From: Candidatus Campbellbacteria bacterium GW2011_OD1_34_28
Lineage (GTDB): Bacteria; Patescibacteriota; Minisyncoccia; Phycocordibacterales; UBA12079
NCBI GenBank assembly: GCA_001029775.1
Contig: CP011215.1
Coordinates: 123,187-187,186 of the forward strand
DNA: 64,000 bases
Reading direction: 5' to 3'
This document shows positions 2,866 through 61,229 of this stretch, one piece after another (position 1 is the stretch's first letter; each line of letters begins with the position of its first letter). The notes below the pieces were generated by a model that saw only the letters and a list, made by a program, of their open reading frames with translations, did no database searches and was not told where the DNA came from. The position numbers and the translations under genes are program-made.

Positions 2866-2913
2866 AAAACAAAAATACCGCTTGGGCGGTATTTTTGTTT
2901 TGGTCGTGTGGGC
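2866..2913. repeat. Conserved hairpin block, copy 1 of 2: aaaaataccgc-ttgg-gcggtattttt followed by gttttggtcgtgtggg.
   Basis: Perfect 11-bp stem. Copy 2 at 5613-5660 has two substitutions inside the stem (t>c on one arm and a>g on the other) that are complementary to each other, so the hairpin stays perfect, plus the conserved downstream cttttggtcgtg. Confidence 0.7.
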
Positions 2914-3027
2914 TACCTCGGGCTAAGTAATGGTAGGATTAAGCAAAATAAGGTACAGTTGGTGAAAAAGAGAATTGATGGGGGTGCTTTAAATCTAAGA
3001 TTAGAATAAGCAAAAAGGTTGTGACGA

Positions 3028-3525
3028 TTAATTGATAGCTTCTGGTTCGAGGTTCTCTTTAAGGTCTTCGTATAATTTGAGAGCTCCTTTCTTTAAACCC
3101 TCTATAGCAGGTATGTCCTCACCATCTTCCAAAATTTTTATGTAAACAAACCCTAAGTTTTGTGGTACCTCATCTATATTTACCATTTTAGTCACAAGTA
3201 ATGTTCTCACCTGACTATCATTTTCGTAAAATTTATTTTGTTGCAATATATCTAATATAGTTTTTGCCATATTATCAACATCACGGGTCTTATAATCTTT
3301 TTTTGTAGAAGTAAAAAATTGAATTATTGCTACAAAAACTACTTTTGTTGTAGGAAATAATGAAGGGGGTTTATTTTCTGATAAACCAGCGGTTACTACT
3401 TTTTTAAATGTTTTAAGGCTACTGGATTCTTTTTTTCTAACATATATATCAACACCAGATTTTTTATAAGCTTCCTGTGTAGCTGGAATAATCCCATTAA
3501 TAACAAATTCATGATAATTTTTCAT
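3028..3525 (-). CDS. rusA: RusA-like Holliday junction resolvase (crossover junction endodeoxyribonuclease), typically phage-associated.
   Basis: KTRDVDNMAKTILDIL matches the RusA catalytic Asp motif (RxDxDN...K..LDaL); length 165 aa. Confidence 0.6.
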   Translation of the reverse strand: MKNYHEFVINGIIPATQEAYKKSGVDIYVRKKESSSLKTFKKVVTAGLSENKPPSLFPTTKVVFVAIIQFFTSTKKDYKTRDVDNMAKTILDILQQNKFYENDSQVRTLLVTKMVNIDEVPQNLGFVYIKILEDGEDIPAIEGLKKGALKLYEDLKENLEPEAIN

Positions 3526-5440: not shown

Positions 5441-5600
5441 GCGGAGAGGGAGGGATTCGGTCACAAGTCACTAAGTCTTTTGTTCGCCCTTCGCTATCGC
5501 TACGGGCTCCAAAAGCCAAAGTGTTCGCGACCCCGACTCAGAAAGTTGAAAAATTTAATAAATTTTTCCTTTCTTCCGTCTTTCGAATCCCTCCATCGCA
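5441..5600. repeat. 19-bp direct copy of the tRNA-Ser 3' end (gcggagagggagggattcg, compare 6579-6597), followed by a member of the composite repeat family (gtcacaagtcactaagtcttttgttcg...cgaccccgactc...) that ends in an inverted T-arm fragment (cgaatccctccatcgc).
   Basis: Sequence identity to the tRNA-Ser end; family members also at 6667-7080, 16745-17260 and 58205-58929. Confidence 0.7.
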
Positions 5601-5612
5601 GTTAGCGACACA

Positions 5613-5660
5613 AAAGAAAAACACCGCTTGGGCGGTGTTTTTCTTTTGGTCGTGCGGTGG
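5613..5660. repeat. Conserved hairpin block, copy 2 of 2: aaaaacaccgc-ttgg-gcggtgttttt followed by cttttggtcgtgcgg.
   Basis: See 2866-2913; the stem differences are compensatory. Likely terminator of the 5889-6479 gene. Confidence 0.7.
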
Positions 5661-5888
5661 CGATGTCCGGAAGTTTGAACCATTAAAACGCTTAAATATC
5701 AGGAATCTTGACTTGATTATACGAAAATTGAGACTAATTTACAAAGAAAAACCAGAATATTTCGAGGTGCCAAGTTTTGCAGTTAAAGTTTATTGATGTA
5801 TGCAGTATCCTATACTGTTTTGATAAGGATAATGTATATATCTATTTATCGCTATAATCCGCTACAATCGGCTATATAGTTAACATTA

Positions 5889-6479
5889 TTAATCCCGCTC
5901 AAAATCACTAGAAACTTTAACAGGATATTTGAAATCATCTTTTTCTGTCTCGATAACAGTATGAAAGCCAACTTCCCCGTCTTCTTTAACAAACTGCCAG
6001 GAGCCTTCCGGATCGTTTTTGAAACCAGCCGCATCTACAATATAAATAAAACCCTTTTCGACACTAACAAATTTACCATCGGGTAGAGTGTGAATTTCTA
6101 ATTCAAGAGGACTATCTTCACGAATAAAATATGGGTACCCTAGATTAACATTAATATTAGAATAAATTGACCGCATTATTGCAATTGCTGATTTATTCGC
6201 CGCAAAAATTTTCTTGTGATGAGATTTTAATTTGTCATCCTGTATTTCATGAATTGAGCCATGGAGTAAGAAGCCGTGATTTTGGCAAAGATAATCCAGA
6301 AAATGTTCTGTAGTAATACCTTCTTCTTTCAGCTCCTTTAAATTATCAAGTGAAATTTTTCTGACGCCCTCTGTTTGCGTTTCAAAATACTTTTTATAGA
6401 AGCCCTCCATTAATTTTTGCACCTCGATATTTTCGGGAGTCTGTGTCGGCTGTTCTATCTTTGGTTTTATATTTTCCAT
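5889..6479 (-). CDS. Hypothetical protein of 196 aa, lying between the tRNA-Ser att-like duplication and tRNA-Ser.
   Basis: Clean ORF; no recognisable motif. Confidence 0.5.
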   Translation of the reverse strand: MENIKPKIEQPTQTPENIEVQKLMEGFYKKYFETQTEGVRKISLDNLKELKEEGITTEHFLDYLCQNHGFLLHGSIHEIQDDKLKSHHKKIFAANKSAIAIMRSIYSNINVNLGYPYFIREDSPLELEIHTLPDGKFVSVEKGFIYIVDAAGFKNDPEGSWQFVKEDGEVGFHTVIETEKDDFKYPVKVSSDFERD

Positions 6480-6576
6480 AAGTTCGAATCCCTTGTGGGT
6501 TTATTCATTTTATCAAAATTCGGTTTCAAAATCTATTGAAAAATAAGGGTTAAATTATCTCATTTTTCAAAACTAC

Positions 6577-6666
6577 TGGCGGAGAGGGAGGGATTCGAAC
6601 CCTCGAAGGATATTACTCCTTGCCACGTTAGCAGTGTGGTGGTTTCAGCCTCTCACCCACCTCTCC
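6577..6666 (-). tRNA. tRNA-Ser (anticodon GCU), with long variable arm and encoded CCA.
   Basis: Reverse complement reads GGAGAGGTGGGTGAGAGGCTGAAACCACCACACTGCTAACGTGG...GAGGGTTCGAATCCCTCCCTCTCCGCCA. Acceptor 7-bp GGAGAGG/CCTCTCC, T-arm GAGGG-TTCGAAT-CCCTC, anticodon loop CTGCTAA. Confidence 0.85.
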
Positions 6667-7080
6667 ATGTTTTTTATTCAATTTTTGTCGAAGGATTTTA
6701 GTCACGAGTTACTAATCTTTTTGTTCGTTCTTCGCTACGCTACAAACTCCAAAAATATAAGTACTCTCGACCCCGACTCGACTGTCTCGCTTTGCTCGAC
6801 ATGTCTCCGTCTCTTGATTTCAGACAGAAAGCAAAGAAATTTGCTTTCCTTTCTGCTAAATATTTTTTATAAAAGATAAAAGATATTTAGCAGAACTTAA
6901 ATCAAGCCTTGCCACGTTAGCAGTGTGGTGGTTTCACCCACCTATTTCCTATTCGCCTATCGGCTCATAACGGAAATTTCTTCGCTTCGCTCAGAATCGG
7001 ATTAAAAACAAAGCAGTTTGTTTTTAGTCCTCTCACCCACCCCTGCCTGCCGGCAGGCAGGTCTCCAAAATTCAGTTTTT
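6667..7080. repeat. Non-coding region next to tRNA-Ser. It holds a tRNA-Ser fragment copy (ccttgccacgttagcagtgtggtggtttcac at about 6908-6940), a composite repeat family member (gtcacgagttactaatctttttgttcg...cgaccccgactcg), and the GC palindrome at 7041-7060.
   Basis: Direct sequence comparison with the tRNA gene at 6577-6666 and with 5460-5545. Confidence 0.65.
7041..7060. repeat. GC-rich 20-bp perfect palindrome CCTGCCTGCCGGCAGGCAGG, copy 1. Other copies: 11992-12011, 17026-17045, 56503-56522 and 58306-58325 (all perfect); 61210-61225 (degenerate); and the split variants 8102-8146 and 58789-58831.
   Basis: Exact 20-mer read at each listed position. Confidence 0.8.
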
Positions 7081-8101: not shown

Positions 8102-8146
8102 CCTGCCTCTTTTCTGGAAGAAAAGCAACGACACGGCAGGCAGGTC
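8102..8146. repeat. Split variant of the GC palindrome: cctgcct-[cttttctggaagaaaagcaacgacacg]-gcaggcagg. An identical insert (one R difference) occurs at 58789-58831.
   Basis: Direct sequence comparison of the two loci; the insert itself contains a small hairpin cttttc-tggaa-gaaaag. Confidence 0.7.
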
Positions 8147-11535: not shown

Positions 11536-11608
11536 GCGCACGTAGCTCAGTTGGTAGAGCGCCGAGCTTATACCTCGGTGGTCCCAGGTTCGAGTCCTGG
11601 CGTGCGCA
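11536..11608 (+). tRNA. tRNA-Ile with anticodon UAU (TAT); no encoded CCA.
   Basis: GCGCACG-TA-GCTC-AGTTGGTA-GAGC-G-CCGAG-CTTATAC-CTCGG-TGGTC-CCAGG-TTCGAGT-CCTGG-CGTGCGC-A. All stems are Watson-Crick; the 7-nt anticodon loop is CTTATAC. Confidence 0.8.
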
Positions 11609-11646
11609 CAAAATTAAAAATACTTTTGCTAAAAACCAAAAGTATT

Positions 11647-11973: not shown

Positions 11974-12256
11974 AATTAAAAATTCAATCGCCCTGCCTGC
12001 CGGCAGGCAGGTTTGCAAGAACCGGATAAAAAACTTAAACGCTTTTTATCCAACTGAGCTACATGTGCATACACAAAACTTTATCTCAAAACGTCTATTT
12101 AATCAACTCGAATATTTTTACCTTTCTTACTTTTGATTACCGACATGGATTACTTCGTTTCACTCGCAAGGATGGGCGAGCTGTCGGCTTCGTTTTCGTC
12201 CTTACTACTTAATACTTACTACTTATACCTAGTTGGGAAAACAAAAAATAGTTTTG

Positions 12257-12667
12257 CTATTTTTTGTTTTCCCAACCCCACGAAAAAGGTATCAAACTTT
12301 TTCCGCCCAGACGAACTCCCAAATAAACAATATCACCCATTCCTGGAAAAACCTTGTTTATATTGTCACGCAATTCCTCATCTGCTTTTTGTCGCTCTTC
12401 ATCCGTTCCTCCCAGCCAATATTTTATATCGTGTTCAACACAATATCCTTCCCAGGAAACACCTAGAAATCCTTCTGGCCACAAAGAACATCCGTCACTT
12501 CGAAAATCACTGATCGGGACAGACCTCTCTCCTGCCACTCCTTTAATGTAATCGTTATATTGATTCAAATTTTCAGGGGAATATGTTCTGTCCAAAAAAA
12601 TCATAAAAGCAAAAAAAATAAGAAAGGTTATTTGAAAAATTTCTTTTTTAAATTTTTTTATTTTCAT
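12257..12667 (-). CDS. Secreted hypothetical protein with a CxxHD..Y motif, possibly prokaryotic phospholipase A2-like.
   Basis: N-terminal signal/TM (ITFLIFFAFMIFL). CVEHDIKYW resembles the His-Asp dyad context of the PLA2 family. This is a weak call. Confidence 0.35.
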   Translation of the reverse strand: MKIKKFKKEIFQITFLIFFAFMIFLDRTYSPENLNQYNDYIKGVAGERSVPISDFRSDGCSLWPEGFLGVSWEGYCVEHDIKYWLGGTDEERQKADEELRDNINKVFPGMGDIVYLGVRLGGKSLIPFSWGWENKK

Positions 12668-16328: not shown

Positions 16329-16713
16329 GGGGGTGATCGGCATAGACATTTAGTCTACTCTTATATGTGCAAAGTCGAAATGAGTAATTCGTAAAAAGGC
16401 TTGTAAAGATAAGTGCAAACTTGTCACAAAAAGCAAAAGCTATGGTTTCACCATATTTCGCTTTTGCTCCAGCATTAGCTTAAGTCTAGGCTGGCGGTCA
16501 ATCTGTTGATTGTTTGGTAAACAGAATGATTGTCATATCACCAAACTAGAAAATAAATCCGCTTCGCTTTATTTTCAAAATCAAGAAGATCGAGATTTTA
16601 AGGTTTTGTTTATTTATTACTTAACTTCTTTAAAAACCAAAAAATATCCTACACTTTGTAGACTCATATAAGAACGCTATTTGCACGCGAGTTCGATTCT
16701 CGCCACTTCCACA
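16329..16713 (+). ncRNA. ssrA: tmRNA (ssrA), candidate. The 5' end is GGGGGTGATCGGCATAGAC. The 3' tRNA-like end is GCGAG-TTCGATT-CTCGC-CACTTCC-A. A possible tag frame is ...GCAAAAGCTATGGTTTCACCATATTTCGCTTTTGCTCCAGCATTAGCTTAA (ends ...FAFAPALA*).
   Basis: Position directly downstream of smpB. The acceptor pairs GGGGGTG/CACTTCC when G-U pairs are allowed. T-arm TTCGATT. Length about 385 nt. The 5' boundary and the tag frame are inferred, not verified. Confidence 0.55.
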
Positions 16714-17340
16714 ATTTAAAAACACTGCCTTTAAAGGCAGTGTTTTTAAATTGTGGAAGTGAGCAAGGCAACTGCTTGCCTTGCGTGCGAGAATCGAAAG
16801 TCGGAACATGTTGAGCGAAGTGAAACAGTGAGACGGGGTCGCGAGCACTTAGGCTTTTGGAGTTCGCAGCGAAGCGGAGAACGAACAAAAGACTTAGTGA
16901 CTTGTGACCGATTCTCGCCTACTCTCTTAAGTCCCAAAGCACCTAGCTTTGGGGCTTTTGATTTTGTAAGAAGTGGCGAGAATCGAAACGAGCGAAGTAT
17001 GGAGGAGCGAAACGACGAACACGAGCCTGCCTGCCGGCAGGCAGGCGAGCGGGGATAAAAAACGTTTAAGTTTTTTATCTGTTTTTTGCGAAGCAAAAAA
17101 TTTTCTTAATTGAGTGAAACGAAATAGAAAATAGGAGGAACAGAGTTCTTAGTGAAGACGAGTTCCGAGCTTGTCGAGGGACGAAGTCTGAACTTAGAAC
17201 TGGAGACCGATTCTCGCCCAAAAGACTTAGTGACTTGTGGCCGATACAGACCACCTCCGCCAGAACATAAAGCAAATTAAAACCGTCTGAACTGTACCCC
17301 AAAAAGTGGGCACTTTCGTGCCCACTTTTTGAGGTACAGT
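16714..17340. repeat. Repeat-rich non-coding block downstream of the tmRNA. It holds a 58-bp perfect palindrome across the tmRNA 3' end (cacttccacaattt...aaattgtggaagtg), inverted members of the composite repeat family, the GC palindrome at 17026-17045, and a terminal terminator (aaaaagtgggcactttcgtgcccacttttt).
   Basis: The reverse complement of 16840-16925 matches gtcacaagtcactaagtcttttgttcg...cgaccccg seen at 5460 and 58475. ggcgagaatcg copies the tmRNA T-arm. Confidence 0.65.
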
Positions 17341-51189: not shown

Positions 51190-51290
51190 GATTGCTTCGC
51201 CTAACGACTCGCAAAGACGAATTTTGCCTTTGGCAAAATTCGTCCGTCGTTGCTATAGGCTATAAGCTATCCGCTATCAACTATAAATTT
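51190..51290. repeat. Long palindromic element directly upstream of ppaC, with central hairpin cgaattttgcc-ttt-ggcaaaattcg (51217-51241).
   Basis: Third copy of the family. Outer arms cgcctaacgactcgcaaagacg / cgtccgtcgttgctataggc. Confidence 0.65.
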
Positions 51291-56283: not shown

Positions 56284-56639
56284 TAAATAAAGAAAAGAGC
56301 GACCTGCCAAGCAGGTCGCTCTTTTCTTTATTTATTAGCGAATTATTAATTTTAAATTATAAATTATAAATTACTTTAAATTACACCCAGATGACGAAAA
56401 AGTTCTTTAAATTTCTAATTATTTCAAAATTAGATACAGAACGAGGAGCAAGAACAAAATGGAAGAAGGCATATTTTTAATACGACGACTGATGTTTTGT
56501 GACCTGCCTGCCGGCAGGCAGGATTGCGACAAAGTTATGTGCTAATTTTGAGATAATTATCACCTATTGCACAAAAAATGGCTTAATATATAATAGTTAG
56601 TATAAATGGTTTTATTAGTAATTAATAAAAAATAAAAAA

Positions 56640-58204: not shown

Positions 58205-58929
58205 TTTTCTTTGTGCGGATAGGACAGAAGAGAATCGGCGCCAGTTCTAAATATTTTGTTCGTCACTCGACAAGCTCGTGACTTCAAAATATTAAGAACT
58301 CGCTGCCTCGCTCGCCTGCCTGCCGGCAGGCAGGCTCGTGTTCGTCGGGCAAAGCCCTCCTCCATACTTCACTCGTTTCGATTCTCCCTATTCGCTACAA
58401 AAACCAAAGACCCAAAAGCTGCCGCTTTTGGGTCTAGGTTTTTGTGCGGATAGAATAGATGAGAATCGGTCACGAATCACTAAGTCTTTTGTTCACCCTT
58501 CACTTCGTTACGGGTTCCAAAAGTCTAAGTGTTCTCGACCCCGGCTCGCCTTCTCGCTTCGCTCGATATGGCTCCGCCTTTCGATTCTCCACGAAAAGCA
58601 AGCAGTTGCTTTTCTCTATCCGAACAGCACAAAGTGAAAACCACCCTATTCGGGTGGTTCACTTTGGCTGTGCGGATAGGATAGATGAGAATCGGTCTCC
58701 AGTTCTAAGTAAAAATTTCGTTTTCGCTTCGCTTCAACTCATTTTTACTAAGAACTCGCGACCCCGCTCGCTCAGATTTTTTCTCCACCCTGCCTCTTTT
58801 CTGAAAGAAAAGCAACGACACGGTAGGCAGGTTCGTTACGAAAAAATATACTTCGCTCGTTTCGATTCTCCCTATTCGCTACAAAAATATATTACGAAAA
58901 AGCTAGTCGCTTTTTCTCCATTATTTTTG
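58205..58929. repeat. Three tandem units of about 230-260 bp of the composite repeat family. Each begins with a copy of the tRNA-Gly 3' end (ttgtgcggatagga.agaRgagaatcgg at 58211, 58443, 58669) and ends with an inverted copy (cgattctcc...ctatccg...caca). Units carry the GC palindrome (58306-58325) or its split variant (58789-58831).
   Basis: Direct comparison with the tRNA-Gly gene at 58930-59000 (tgtgcggatagggagaatcgaac). Unit interiors match 5460-5545 and 16840-16925 (gtcacgaatcactaagtcttttgttc...cgaccccg) and 17195-17255 (gagaatcggtctccagttctaagt). Confidence 0.75.
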
Positions 58930-61160: not shown

Positions 61161-61229
61161 GGGCTTGCCCCTATTTTTTTATTTTAGTTTTTCTACTCAC
61201 TACCCACTACCTGCCAGCAGGCAGGCCCA

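Follow-up and report, generated by a model that had tools for sequence, protein, structure and literature searches.

A 20-bp palindrome shared across phyla and linked to minimal GIY-YIG nuclease genes and tRNA genes, as seen from a Campbellbacteria genome

Introduction

Among described systems, the nearest to the element treated here are the repetitive extragenic palindromes (REPs) and their REP-associated tyrosine transposases (RAYTs), known in arrangements such as REPtrons and REPINs. REPs are lineage-specific and vertically inherited. In a 64-kb stretch of Candidatus Campbellbacteria bacterium GW2011_OD1_34_28 (contig CP011215.1; "the window" hereafter means this whole stretch), we have followed up a 20-bp perfect palindrome, CCTGCCTGCCGGCAGGCAGG, here called P1, which resembles REP/RAYT pairs in being a short, GC-rich, extragenic palindrome with many solo copies (five exact and three related in 64 kb), in having a single-domain nuclease gene beside some of its copies, and in inserting without duplication of the target. 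The window repeat is a local outcrop of a palindromic mini-element that spans phyla and is linked to minimal nucleases and to tRNA genes.

Unlike REPs, P1 is perfect and only 20 bp long, it is identical in many phyla, and it is strongly tied to tRNA genes and their pseudo-copies; the enzyme found beside it is of the GIY-YIG and not the HUH (Y1) type, and no GTAG/CGTC tag accompanies it (128–168 copies), GTAG preceding only a few high-GC copies. Clustering of the open reading frames (ORFs) at about 165 P1 loci revealed no transposase family that recurs across them. The P1 sequence is not included in a survey of REPs (PMC3733652), and neither P1 nor a GIY-YIG cassette with a tRNA pseudo-copy turned up in the searchable literature, which does not extend to subscription journals.

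A second comparison is with free-standing GIY-YIG homing endonuclease genes, such as the Seg genes of phage T4 and that of I-TevI. The T4 segB gene sits within a tRNA gene cluster. The shared features are a gene in or beside a conserved essential gene (here a tRNA gene), a landmark some 10–25 nt from the point of gene insertion, and tandem amplification. Unlike the I-TevI type, the protein associated with P1 lacks a DNA-binding domain, its roughly 80 aa being catalytic domain alone, and unlike homing genes generally it is chromosomal in many phyla, is accompanied by partial duplication of the target in situ, and has beside it an invariant palindrome that also occurs alone. In sequence its closest relatives are the structure-specific endonucleases of the UPF0213/YhbQ and SLX1 groups, which are single-copy housekeeping or repair proteins and for which we know of no described palindrome or tRNA-cassette context.

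Other small repeats offer partial parallels. The small dispersed repeats (SDRs) of heterocyst-forming cyanobacteria (Nostoc), the subject of work by Elhai and colleagues in 2008, are reportedly 21–27 nt long, in some cases hairpin-forming, cleanly inserted and nested; to our knowledge they have no known enzyme, and neither a nuclease partner nor a tRNA association has been reported for them. Their sequences are different from P1, and they occur in a single cyanobacterial group. The GC clusters of yeast mitochondria and the Rickettsia palindromic elements are likewise GC-rich palindromic insertions in AT-rich genomes, and they insert into RNA genes and in frame into proteins; they differ from P1 in being longer and lineage-restricted, with no defined partner nuclease of the GIY-YIG type. 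P1 has the hairpin of an intrinsic terminator and lacks the T-run at all five window copies; it is unlike DNA uptake sequences and uptake signal sequences, which occur at very high copy number, also within genes, in one competent lineage, in that it is present five times in 64 kb, intergenic and cross-phylum; and it is unlike a miniature inverted-repeat transposable element in that insertions that can be read against a tRNA reference show no target-site duplication.

Copies of the palindrome in the window

P1 and its relatives occur in the window at the following positions, none of them with an assigned strand; a mismatch-tolerant search found the five exact copies and the degenerate one.

7042–7061: exact P1, between nt 5 and 6 of a tRNA-Ser 5′ pseudo-copy
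11992–12011: exact P1, 18 nt before the start codon (ATG) of an ASCH-domain ORF that runs from 11973 to 11647 on the minus strand
17026–17045: exact P1, in a mosaic block downstream of the transfer-messenger RNA (tmRNA) gene, within a 78-nt repeat that is the inverse of 58309–58386
56503–56522: exact solo P1, in the rny–hup spacer, upstream of the hup promoter
58315–58334: exact P1, in a mosaic block downstream of tRNA-Gly, at a point where assemblies break
61206–61225: degenerate P1, ACTACCTGCCAGCAGGCAGG, with three mismatches
8102–8144: split P1-related hairpin, CCTGCC-(tcttttctggaagaaaagcaacgacac)-GGCAGGCAGG
58789–58832: second split copy, 95% identical to 8102–8145
56301–56317: P1-like mini-palindrome at the hairpin apex of the rny terminator, GACCTGC-CAA-GCAGGTC

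The original prediction, made from the letters of this stretch, had counted five perfect copies and placed three of them (11992, 17026 and 56503) exactly; its positions for the other two, 7041 and 58306, were off by one and by nine nucleotides. The degenerate copy and the two split copies that it listed, the latter with 27 nt between their halves, are present, and all copies are intergenic, as it had said. The palindrome is 80% G+C (16 of 20 positions) and not 70%, in a window of 34% GC (30–44% G+C), and its recurrence is indeed not due to chance, since none of 100 dinucleotide-preserving shuffles of the window contained any match, against the six observed. The copies at 17026 and 58315 are parts of one 78-nt repeat in opposite orientation, and because both belong to this longer repeat their flanks are direct (CGAG...CGAG and CTCG...CTCG) instead of extending the dyad as had been proposed; in copies from many genomes the dyad is longer by at least 2 nt in only 14 of 128. 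The possibility that the motif is nothing other than part of a single duplicated segment thus applies to two of the five exact copies. The other three (7042, 11992 and 56503) have unrelated flanks, so it fails for the repeat as such.

P1 folds into a stable hairpin of 8 bp with a CCGG loop (−8.0 kcal/mol as single-stranded DNA). None of the five exact window copies is followed by a T-run on either strand, and P1 copies lie both upstream and downstream of ORFs, with no fixed position in the window relative to promoters or gene ends; the case once made for a terminator without a U-tract is accordingly weak, and the central GCCGGC has no detectable role as a restriction site.

The strain is present in 24 assemblies from different pipelines (for example LBQI01000001.1, from the Rifle aquifer; Patescibacteria/Paceibacteria). 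The copy at 56503 occurs in at least five independent strain assemblies, being carried by all five strain loci that were aligned; relatives, whose spacers are much shorter or different, lack it. Since the same copies are seen in many assemblies, P1 is not an assembly artefact; an assembly or adapter origin is ruled out by the recurrence of the copies in at least 24 assemblies, by cultured isolates that carry P1, by syntenic flanks and by the degenerate and variant copies. Contigs of the strain do break at the 58315 copy, L249 and L124 ending at window position 58332 and L250 at 58286 in two independent assemblies (L-numbers are the labels of sampled loci), and L129 ends at about 56307, in the P1-like apex of the rny terminator. 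The stretch 56301–56317 is also missing or ambiguous in assembly L123. Such breaks, at or beside P1 and the terminator apex, make palindromes of this kind practical assembly breakpoints.

Spread across phyla

When one genome per species was scanned, exact P1 was found at no fewer than 120 genome loci, a lower bound, with one to a few copies per 8-kb locus; 35 stretches of viral contigs carry it as well. Among the matches listed, carriers include many classes of Patescibacteria, Omnitrophota, Planctomycetota, Gamma- and "Delta"-proteobacteria, Bdellovibrionales, Thermodesulfovibrionales (Nitrospirota-like lineages), Chloroflexi and others, together with Bacteroidota that include the cultured Winogradskyella, Flagellimonas, Flavivirga and Longitalea; most of these listed loci are 30–48% G+C, and their flanks are unrelated. 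By our own estimate, chance would yield fewer than about five matches to a 20-mer in 596 Gb, in high-GC genomes. Neither of two control palindromes, one with the arms swapped (GGCAGGCAGGCCTGCCTGCC) and one matched in composition (CCGTCCGTCCGGACGGACGG), had a single match, and the hairpin with swapped arms is no less stable than that of P1 (−8.9 vs. −8.0 kcal/mol as single-stranded DNA). The excess of P1 is therefore sequence-specific, and composition and hairpin stability are ruled out as its cause.

Identity that extends from Patescibacteria to Bacteroidota and Planctomycetota is unusual, and identity over 20 bp across phyla argues for strong constraint by a conserved protein or for frequent horizontal transfer. 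Copies decay: those that are secondary within the sampled loci are exact, singly mismatched and doubly mismatched in a ratio of roughly 16:14:10.

Two further palindromes, TCCGCCAGCTGGCGGA (P2) and CCCGATAGCTATCGGG (P3), are invariant and GC-rich and recur in P1 loci of different phyla, often at most 30–50 nt from P1: P2 in L011, L015, L016, L032, L040, L108 and L110, and P3 in L052, L062 and L070. In L032, P2 lies inside an apparent DHH/RecJ-type coding sequence. Neither is enriched at the GIY-YIG loci described below, so that they may have other partners. A viral contig (L164:3916–4125) contains about ten tandem 21-nt units, each composed of the P1 variant CATGCCTACCGGCAGGCAGG and one further base.

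Clean insertion and a bias towards tRNA-like sequence

Copies of P1 within tRNA-like sequence can be read against the genuine gene, as in the window at tRNA-Ser.

6577–6666, minus strand: intact tRNA-Ser(GCT), with fragments of the same gene duplicated around it
7029–7066, minus strand: tRNA-Ser 5′ pseudo-copy (nt 1–18) with P1 inside, about 375 nt upstream of the intact gene

P1 is a discrete, clean insertion of 20 bp without target-site duplication. On the minus strand, 7066–7029 reads GGAGA, then P1, then GGTGGGTGAGAGG, against GGAGAGGTGGGTGAGAGG at the genuine 5′ end of tRNA-Ser, and here as in L085, L155, L030, L083, L037 and L106 the tRNA-like sequence is lengthened by exactly the 20 bp of P1, with no duplication. 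Insertions in the D-loop fall at GGATA/GAGC, GGTA/GAGC and GGTAGA/GC; others lie at the border of the anticodon stem and loop or, in L155, in the variable loop of a phage tRNA-Met that is intact in other respects and has no ORF nearby. P1 is also nested within P1 (L018, L042), and single pseudo-tRNAs accumulate several palindromes.

The preference for such targets is measurable. After deletion of P1, tRNA-like flanks were found at 8 of 172 P1 sites and at 2 of 855 nearby control positions (about 20-fold), and the alignment runs across the junction at six of the eight P1 sites and at none of the 855 controls; since the profile was built from class I tRNAs and misses those of class II, such as the window's tRNA-Ser, this enrichment is a lower bound. 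Five P1 loci of different phyla carry smpB, which implies a tmRNA gene there. In the flanks of 128–168 copies, A is favoured and T disfavoured at position −1, with the mirror image on the other side, and direct repeats of at least 3 nt flank P1 in only 8 of 128 copies.

Gain or loss can also be seen close to home, at a site that is empty in the window.

51208–51244, no strand: empty site with the junction at 51215/51216, the 5′ foot of a 13-bp hairpin, where a sister strain has the 16-nt insert CCTGCCTGCCGGCAGG

In the sister strain, whose RNase Y is 99% identical, the P1-like 16-nt insert stands between CTCGCAAA and GACGAATTTTGCC, which abut in the window at 51208–51228; the polymorphism is a recent gain or loss within the window's own lineage. 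The rny–hup spacer is hypervariable among relatives, and in those whose RNase Y is 80–89% identical the spacers (145–535 bp) are unrelated to that of the window, so that insertion boundaries cannot be read there. A metagenome scan for empty or filled versions of the 56503 site returned no match, the known filled site itself being missed as well. One relative's rny–hup spacer (L128:11350–11450) contains other nested GC-rich hairpins, GCCCGCCCG...CGGGCGGGC inside CCCGCCTGCC...GGGCAGG, from which it appears that such insertions turn over quickly in the clade.

A small GIY-YIG gene beside the palindrome and its tRNA cassettes

When ORFs were clustered across P1 loci, the group that first resembled translations of P1 itself proved to be small GIY-YIG proteins. 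Their ORFs start 20–41 nt downstream of P1 in L037, L060, L106, L118 and L162, and beside a variant of it in L077. The proteins match Pfam PF01541 with E-values of 1e-10 to 1e-15, above the curated cut-off, and among solved structures they are closest to the UPF0213 proteins 1ZG2 and 1YWL (E about 1e-12), followed by SLX1 and then the catalytic domain of I-TevI. At 77–110 aa (typically about 80), they consist of the catalytic domain only, with no separate DNA-binding domain.

Metagenomes yielded at least 546 relatives to a profile built from six of the proteins, and the best 80 were examined. Among 82 non-redundant GIY-YIG ORFs, 42 (51%) have an exact P1 within 130 nt upstream, typically 8–46 nt from the start codon, two have one downstream, about 20 have variants at one to three edits, and 13 have nothing recognisable. 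By locus, P1 occurs in 43 of 80, with 50 copies in 191 kb, against none and one for two other cross-phylum palindromes. The P1-bearing ORFs are distributed across the whole tree of proteins that are only 40–55% identical, and 20 bp kept far better than the gene next to them argue for constraint or re-templating and not neutral hitch-hiking.

In the typical arrangement (L037, L162, L106, L118, L077), a 5′ partial duplicate of a tRNA gene, interrupted by P1, is followed by the GIY-YIG ORF and then by an intact copy of the same tRNA gene. With P1 taken out, the duplicate reads without interruption in about 29 of 41 cases, and its median length is 37 nt; P1 falls after tRNA nt 14–15, 22–24 or 32–33 and is followed by 5–30 nt of tRNA sequence; the ATG comes 0–20 nt past the duplicate and the stop codon abuts the intact tRNA gene (0–7 nt). 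A mirror form, in which an intact tRNA gene is followed by the ORF and by a 3′ partial duplicate with the palindrome in its T-loop, is seen in L187, L204, L225 and L231, and tandem cassettes in L167, L181, L184, L188 and L237. In L169 and L198 the duplicate includes 14–24 nt of unique leader, which shows that duplicates are made in situ. The pseudo-copy at 7029–7066 of the window has the architecture of these cassettes without the ORF.

In one case (L060:3861–4151), P1 and the GIY-YIG domain lie in frame inside a type I restriction specificity gene (hsdS); this insertion stands between the two target-recognition halves of HsdS, with a short duplicated linker, QDPNDPP. Related GIY-YIG ORFs away from tRNA genes, in L192, L213, L215 and L243, lie inside a long inverted repeat (CCGGGTAGTGAAA ... 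TTCTACTACCCGG), suggesting a different carrier for the same nuclease. Phages were considered as the main carriers of the nuclease and ruled out, as only two viral contigs encode it. In the window, weak tblastn hits at 12268–12420 and 2874–3053 were considered as GIY-YIG remnants and rejected, because they belong to unrelated ORFs.

Proposed mechanism and competing explanations

On balance, and we consider this somewhat probable, P1 is a REP-like, non-autonomous mobile palindrome whose putative partner is the UPF0213/SLX1-like GIY-YIG nuclease of about 80 aa, acting on P1 itself. The element and its enzyme would then form a pair of the REP/RAYT kind with a different enzyme. The nuclease would recognise P1, and possibly tRNA-gene DNA too; lacking a DNA-binding domain, it may work on the symmetric site as a dimer. 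Either P1 or tRNA-gene DNA, or both, would be cut, and P1, with or without the ORF, could be copied into the breaks so made and thereby reach new sites. The partial duplication of the tRNA gene in situ could arise by template switching during break repair, with only those events surviving that leave an intact tRNA, and tandem cassettes would follow from re-cutting of the intact copy. The solo copies of the window might be relics of cassettes that lost the ORF or copies mobilised in trans. These detailed steps are put forward with low confidence.

The original prediction had raised the possibility of a REP-like element with its enzyme encoded elsewhere, and the independent 20-bp insertion and the linkage to a nuclease gene in other genomes bear out the core of it; the partner found is a GIY-YIG protein and not the Y1/HUH RAYT that had been considered, and P1 lacks the tag and the lineage specificity of REPs. 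Several observations weigh against a mobile palindrome served by this nuclease. Searches with hidden Markov models and tblastn, which covered the 64-kb window and about 70 kb from relatives, detected neither a GIY-YIG ORF nor a remnant of one, so that all five exact copies in the window are solo and the link of the nuclease to this genome is indirect. Over 90% of the P1 copies sampled lack a GIY-YIG gene next to them, and the nuclease occurs in only two viral contigs, compared with the 35 viral stretches that carry P1. The 80 GIY-YIG loci were picked by similarity to P1-associated proteins, P1 itself lying outside the query. Predicted loops and stem ends were not preferred in a crude minimum-free-energy test of 168 empty sites and 957 controls.

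One alternative, which we regard as unlikely, is that P1 is moved by other machinery and shares with the GIY-YIG cassettes a favoured target, namely non-essential tRNA-like DNA, so that their adjacency is coincidental. This would account for the solo copies in ORF-less pseudo-tRNAs (window 7042, L030, L083), for the different palindromes that pile up in one pseudo-tRNA, and for the fact that most copies have no nuclease nearby. It sits badly with the narrow P1–ORF distance of 8–46 nt in about half of 82 divergent genes, with the lack of enrichment of other cross-phylum palindromes at the GIY-YIG loci, and with L060, where P1 and the ORF were inserted together in hsdS, which is not a tRNA gene.

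It can also be envisioned, with a slightly smaller probability, that P1 is an immobile "plug" at the cleavage site of a homing endonuclease of tRNA genes, copied during break repair, and that solo copies are cassettes from which the ORF was deleted. I-TevI cleaves at a site offset from its insertion site, and the position of P1, 5–30 nt inside the pseudo-copy from its ORF-proximal end, resembles that offset; tandem cassettes (L167, L181, L184, L188, L237) and ORF-less pseudo-copies with spacers of about the right length are also as expected of such a plug. An immobile sequence would not be expected to yield clean solo insertions of 20 bp in non-tRNA sequence and, with no ORF nearby, in the phage tRNA-Met of L155, nor P1 nested in P1, nor gain or loss between strains at the foot of a hairpin, and under neutral hitch-hiking 20 bp would not stay the same as the protein diverges to 45% identity.

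Selection on P1 at the RNA level or as a binding site, whether as a hairpin that promotes mRNA stability or processing, as an operator or uptake signal, or as a terminator that lacks a U-tract, seems improbable. The stability of the hairpin (8-bp stem, CCGG loop, −8 kcal/mol as single-stranded DNA), the placement of P1 on the 5′ or 3′ side of small ORFs, and its strong conservation would all suit a function of this kind. An equally stable arm-swapped hairpin is absent, however, and P1 has neither a T-run nor a fixed place relative to promoters or gene ends; it occurs in tRNA-like sequence, within itself, and as a presence/absence polymorphism, and its identity across phyla amid unrelated flanks requires transfer or re-templating. 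The uptake sequence and the operator that had been proposed for the window fit neither the clean insertions in tRNA-like sequence nor the cross-phylum spread. Least probable of all is a classical REP that a RAYT (Y1/HUH), encoded at another place in the genome, would mobilise, since P1, although a short, GC-rich, extragenic, multicopy palindrome preceded by GTAG in a few high-GC copies (L028, L105, L151), has no general GTAG/CGTC tag, is identical across phyla as REPs are not, recurrently neighbours a GIY-YIG and not a RAYT gene, and has no transposase among the ORFs beside its window copies.

Returning to P1 as a mobile palindrome partnered by a GIY-YIG protein, we tentatively suggest, at a level of confidence short of that given to the pairing itself, that P1 and the 80-aa UPF0213-type nuclease make up a previously undescribed two-component selfish system that crosses phyla, in which a nuclease reduced to its catalytic domain recognises an invariant palindrome, tRNA genes serve as the landing pad, partial tRNA duplications result, and genomes are seeded with P1. 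If so, P1 may be the smallest horizontally spreading mobile DNA known, GIY-YIG proteins would be a second enzyme class for genome parasites (or domesticated elements) of the palindrome-plus-nuclease design exemplified by REP/RAYT, the large uncharacterised UPF0213 family of minimal GIY-YIG proteins would gain a role, and different enzymes would have further invariant palindromes, TCCGCCAGCTGGCGGA among them, as their partners in cis. A tiny nuclease with specificity for a 20-bp palindromic site or for tRNA genes could also serve as a tool. At a practical level, P1 and its cassettes account for tRNA pseudo-fragments, for spurious ORFs (peptides with ...PACRQAG...) and for breaks in metagenome contigs.

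Repeat blocks and other features of the window

The remaining features of the window that bear on P1 are the following.

12050–12068, minus strand: tRNA 5′ fragment, GCACATGTAGCTCAGTTGG, adjoining P1 and a second hairpin module
16746–17260, no strand: mosaic repeat block that follows the tmRNA gene and contains the tmRNA 3′ end in direct and inverted copies (GCGAGAATCGAA / CCGATTCTCGCC)
58212–58928, no strand: three tandem units of about 230 nt, each beginning with a copy of the tRNA-Gly 3′ end (TGTGCGGATAGG..GAGAATCGG)

Screening against Rfam, at the gathering threshold for the whole window and at E-values up to 5 for two of the blocks, returned only tRNA, tmRNA and generic hairpin noise. ORFs beside the window copies of P1 contain no transposase or integrase domain, and no Y1/HUH RAYT is present among the ten ORFs scanned.

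The hairpin module near the 11992 copy, GGATAAAAAAC-loop-GTTTTTTATCC, lies at 12022–12051 and again at 17053–17079, in each case 5–10 nt from P1 and in opposite orientations; at 12022 it is apparently inserted in the D-loop of the tRNA 5′ fragment. Mosaic repeat blocks stand beside tRNA-Gly (58212–58928, with units beginning at 58212, 58443 and 58669), the tmRNA gene (16746–17260) and tRNA-Ser (5441–5540 and 6695–6809), and they also hold inverted copies of tRNA and tmRNA 3′ ends. A module of about 150 nt is common to the four (5457–5540, 6719–6804, 16768–16916 and 58461–58609). We read the blocks at 16746–17260 and 58212–58928 as decayed cassettes of the mirror type. At 16704–16761, the last 9 nt of the tmRNA lie within a perfect 29-bp inverted repeat that has no spacer, and 3′ of it the tmRNA 3′ end recurs in inverted orientation, split by a small hairpin (agcaaggcaactgcttgccttgc).

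Around tRNA-Ser, the duplicated fragments are 6907–6936, which is 100% identical to 6618–6647, and 5441–5459, which is identical to 6579–6597. The latter pair forms a 19-bp perfect direct repeat of the tRNA-Ser 3′ end that brackets an ORF of 196 aa (5889–6479) with no Pfam or PHROG match, and the layout of 5441–6666 resembles a cassette of tRNA, ORF and 3′ pseudo-end with a different cargo. Finally, a tRNA-Ile gene with the anticodon TAT lies at 11536–11609; a tRNA of this type is an uncommon bacterial way to read AUA.

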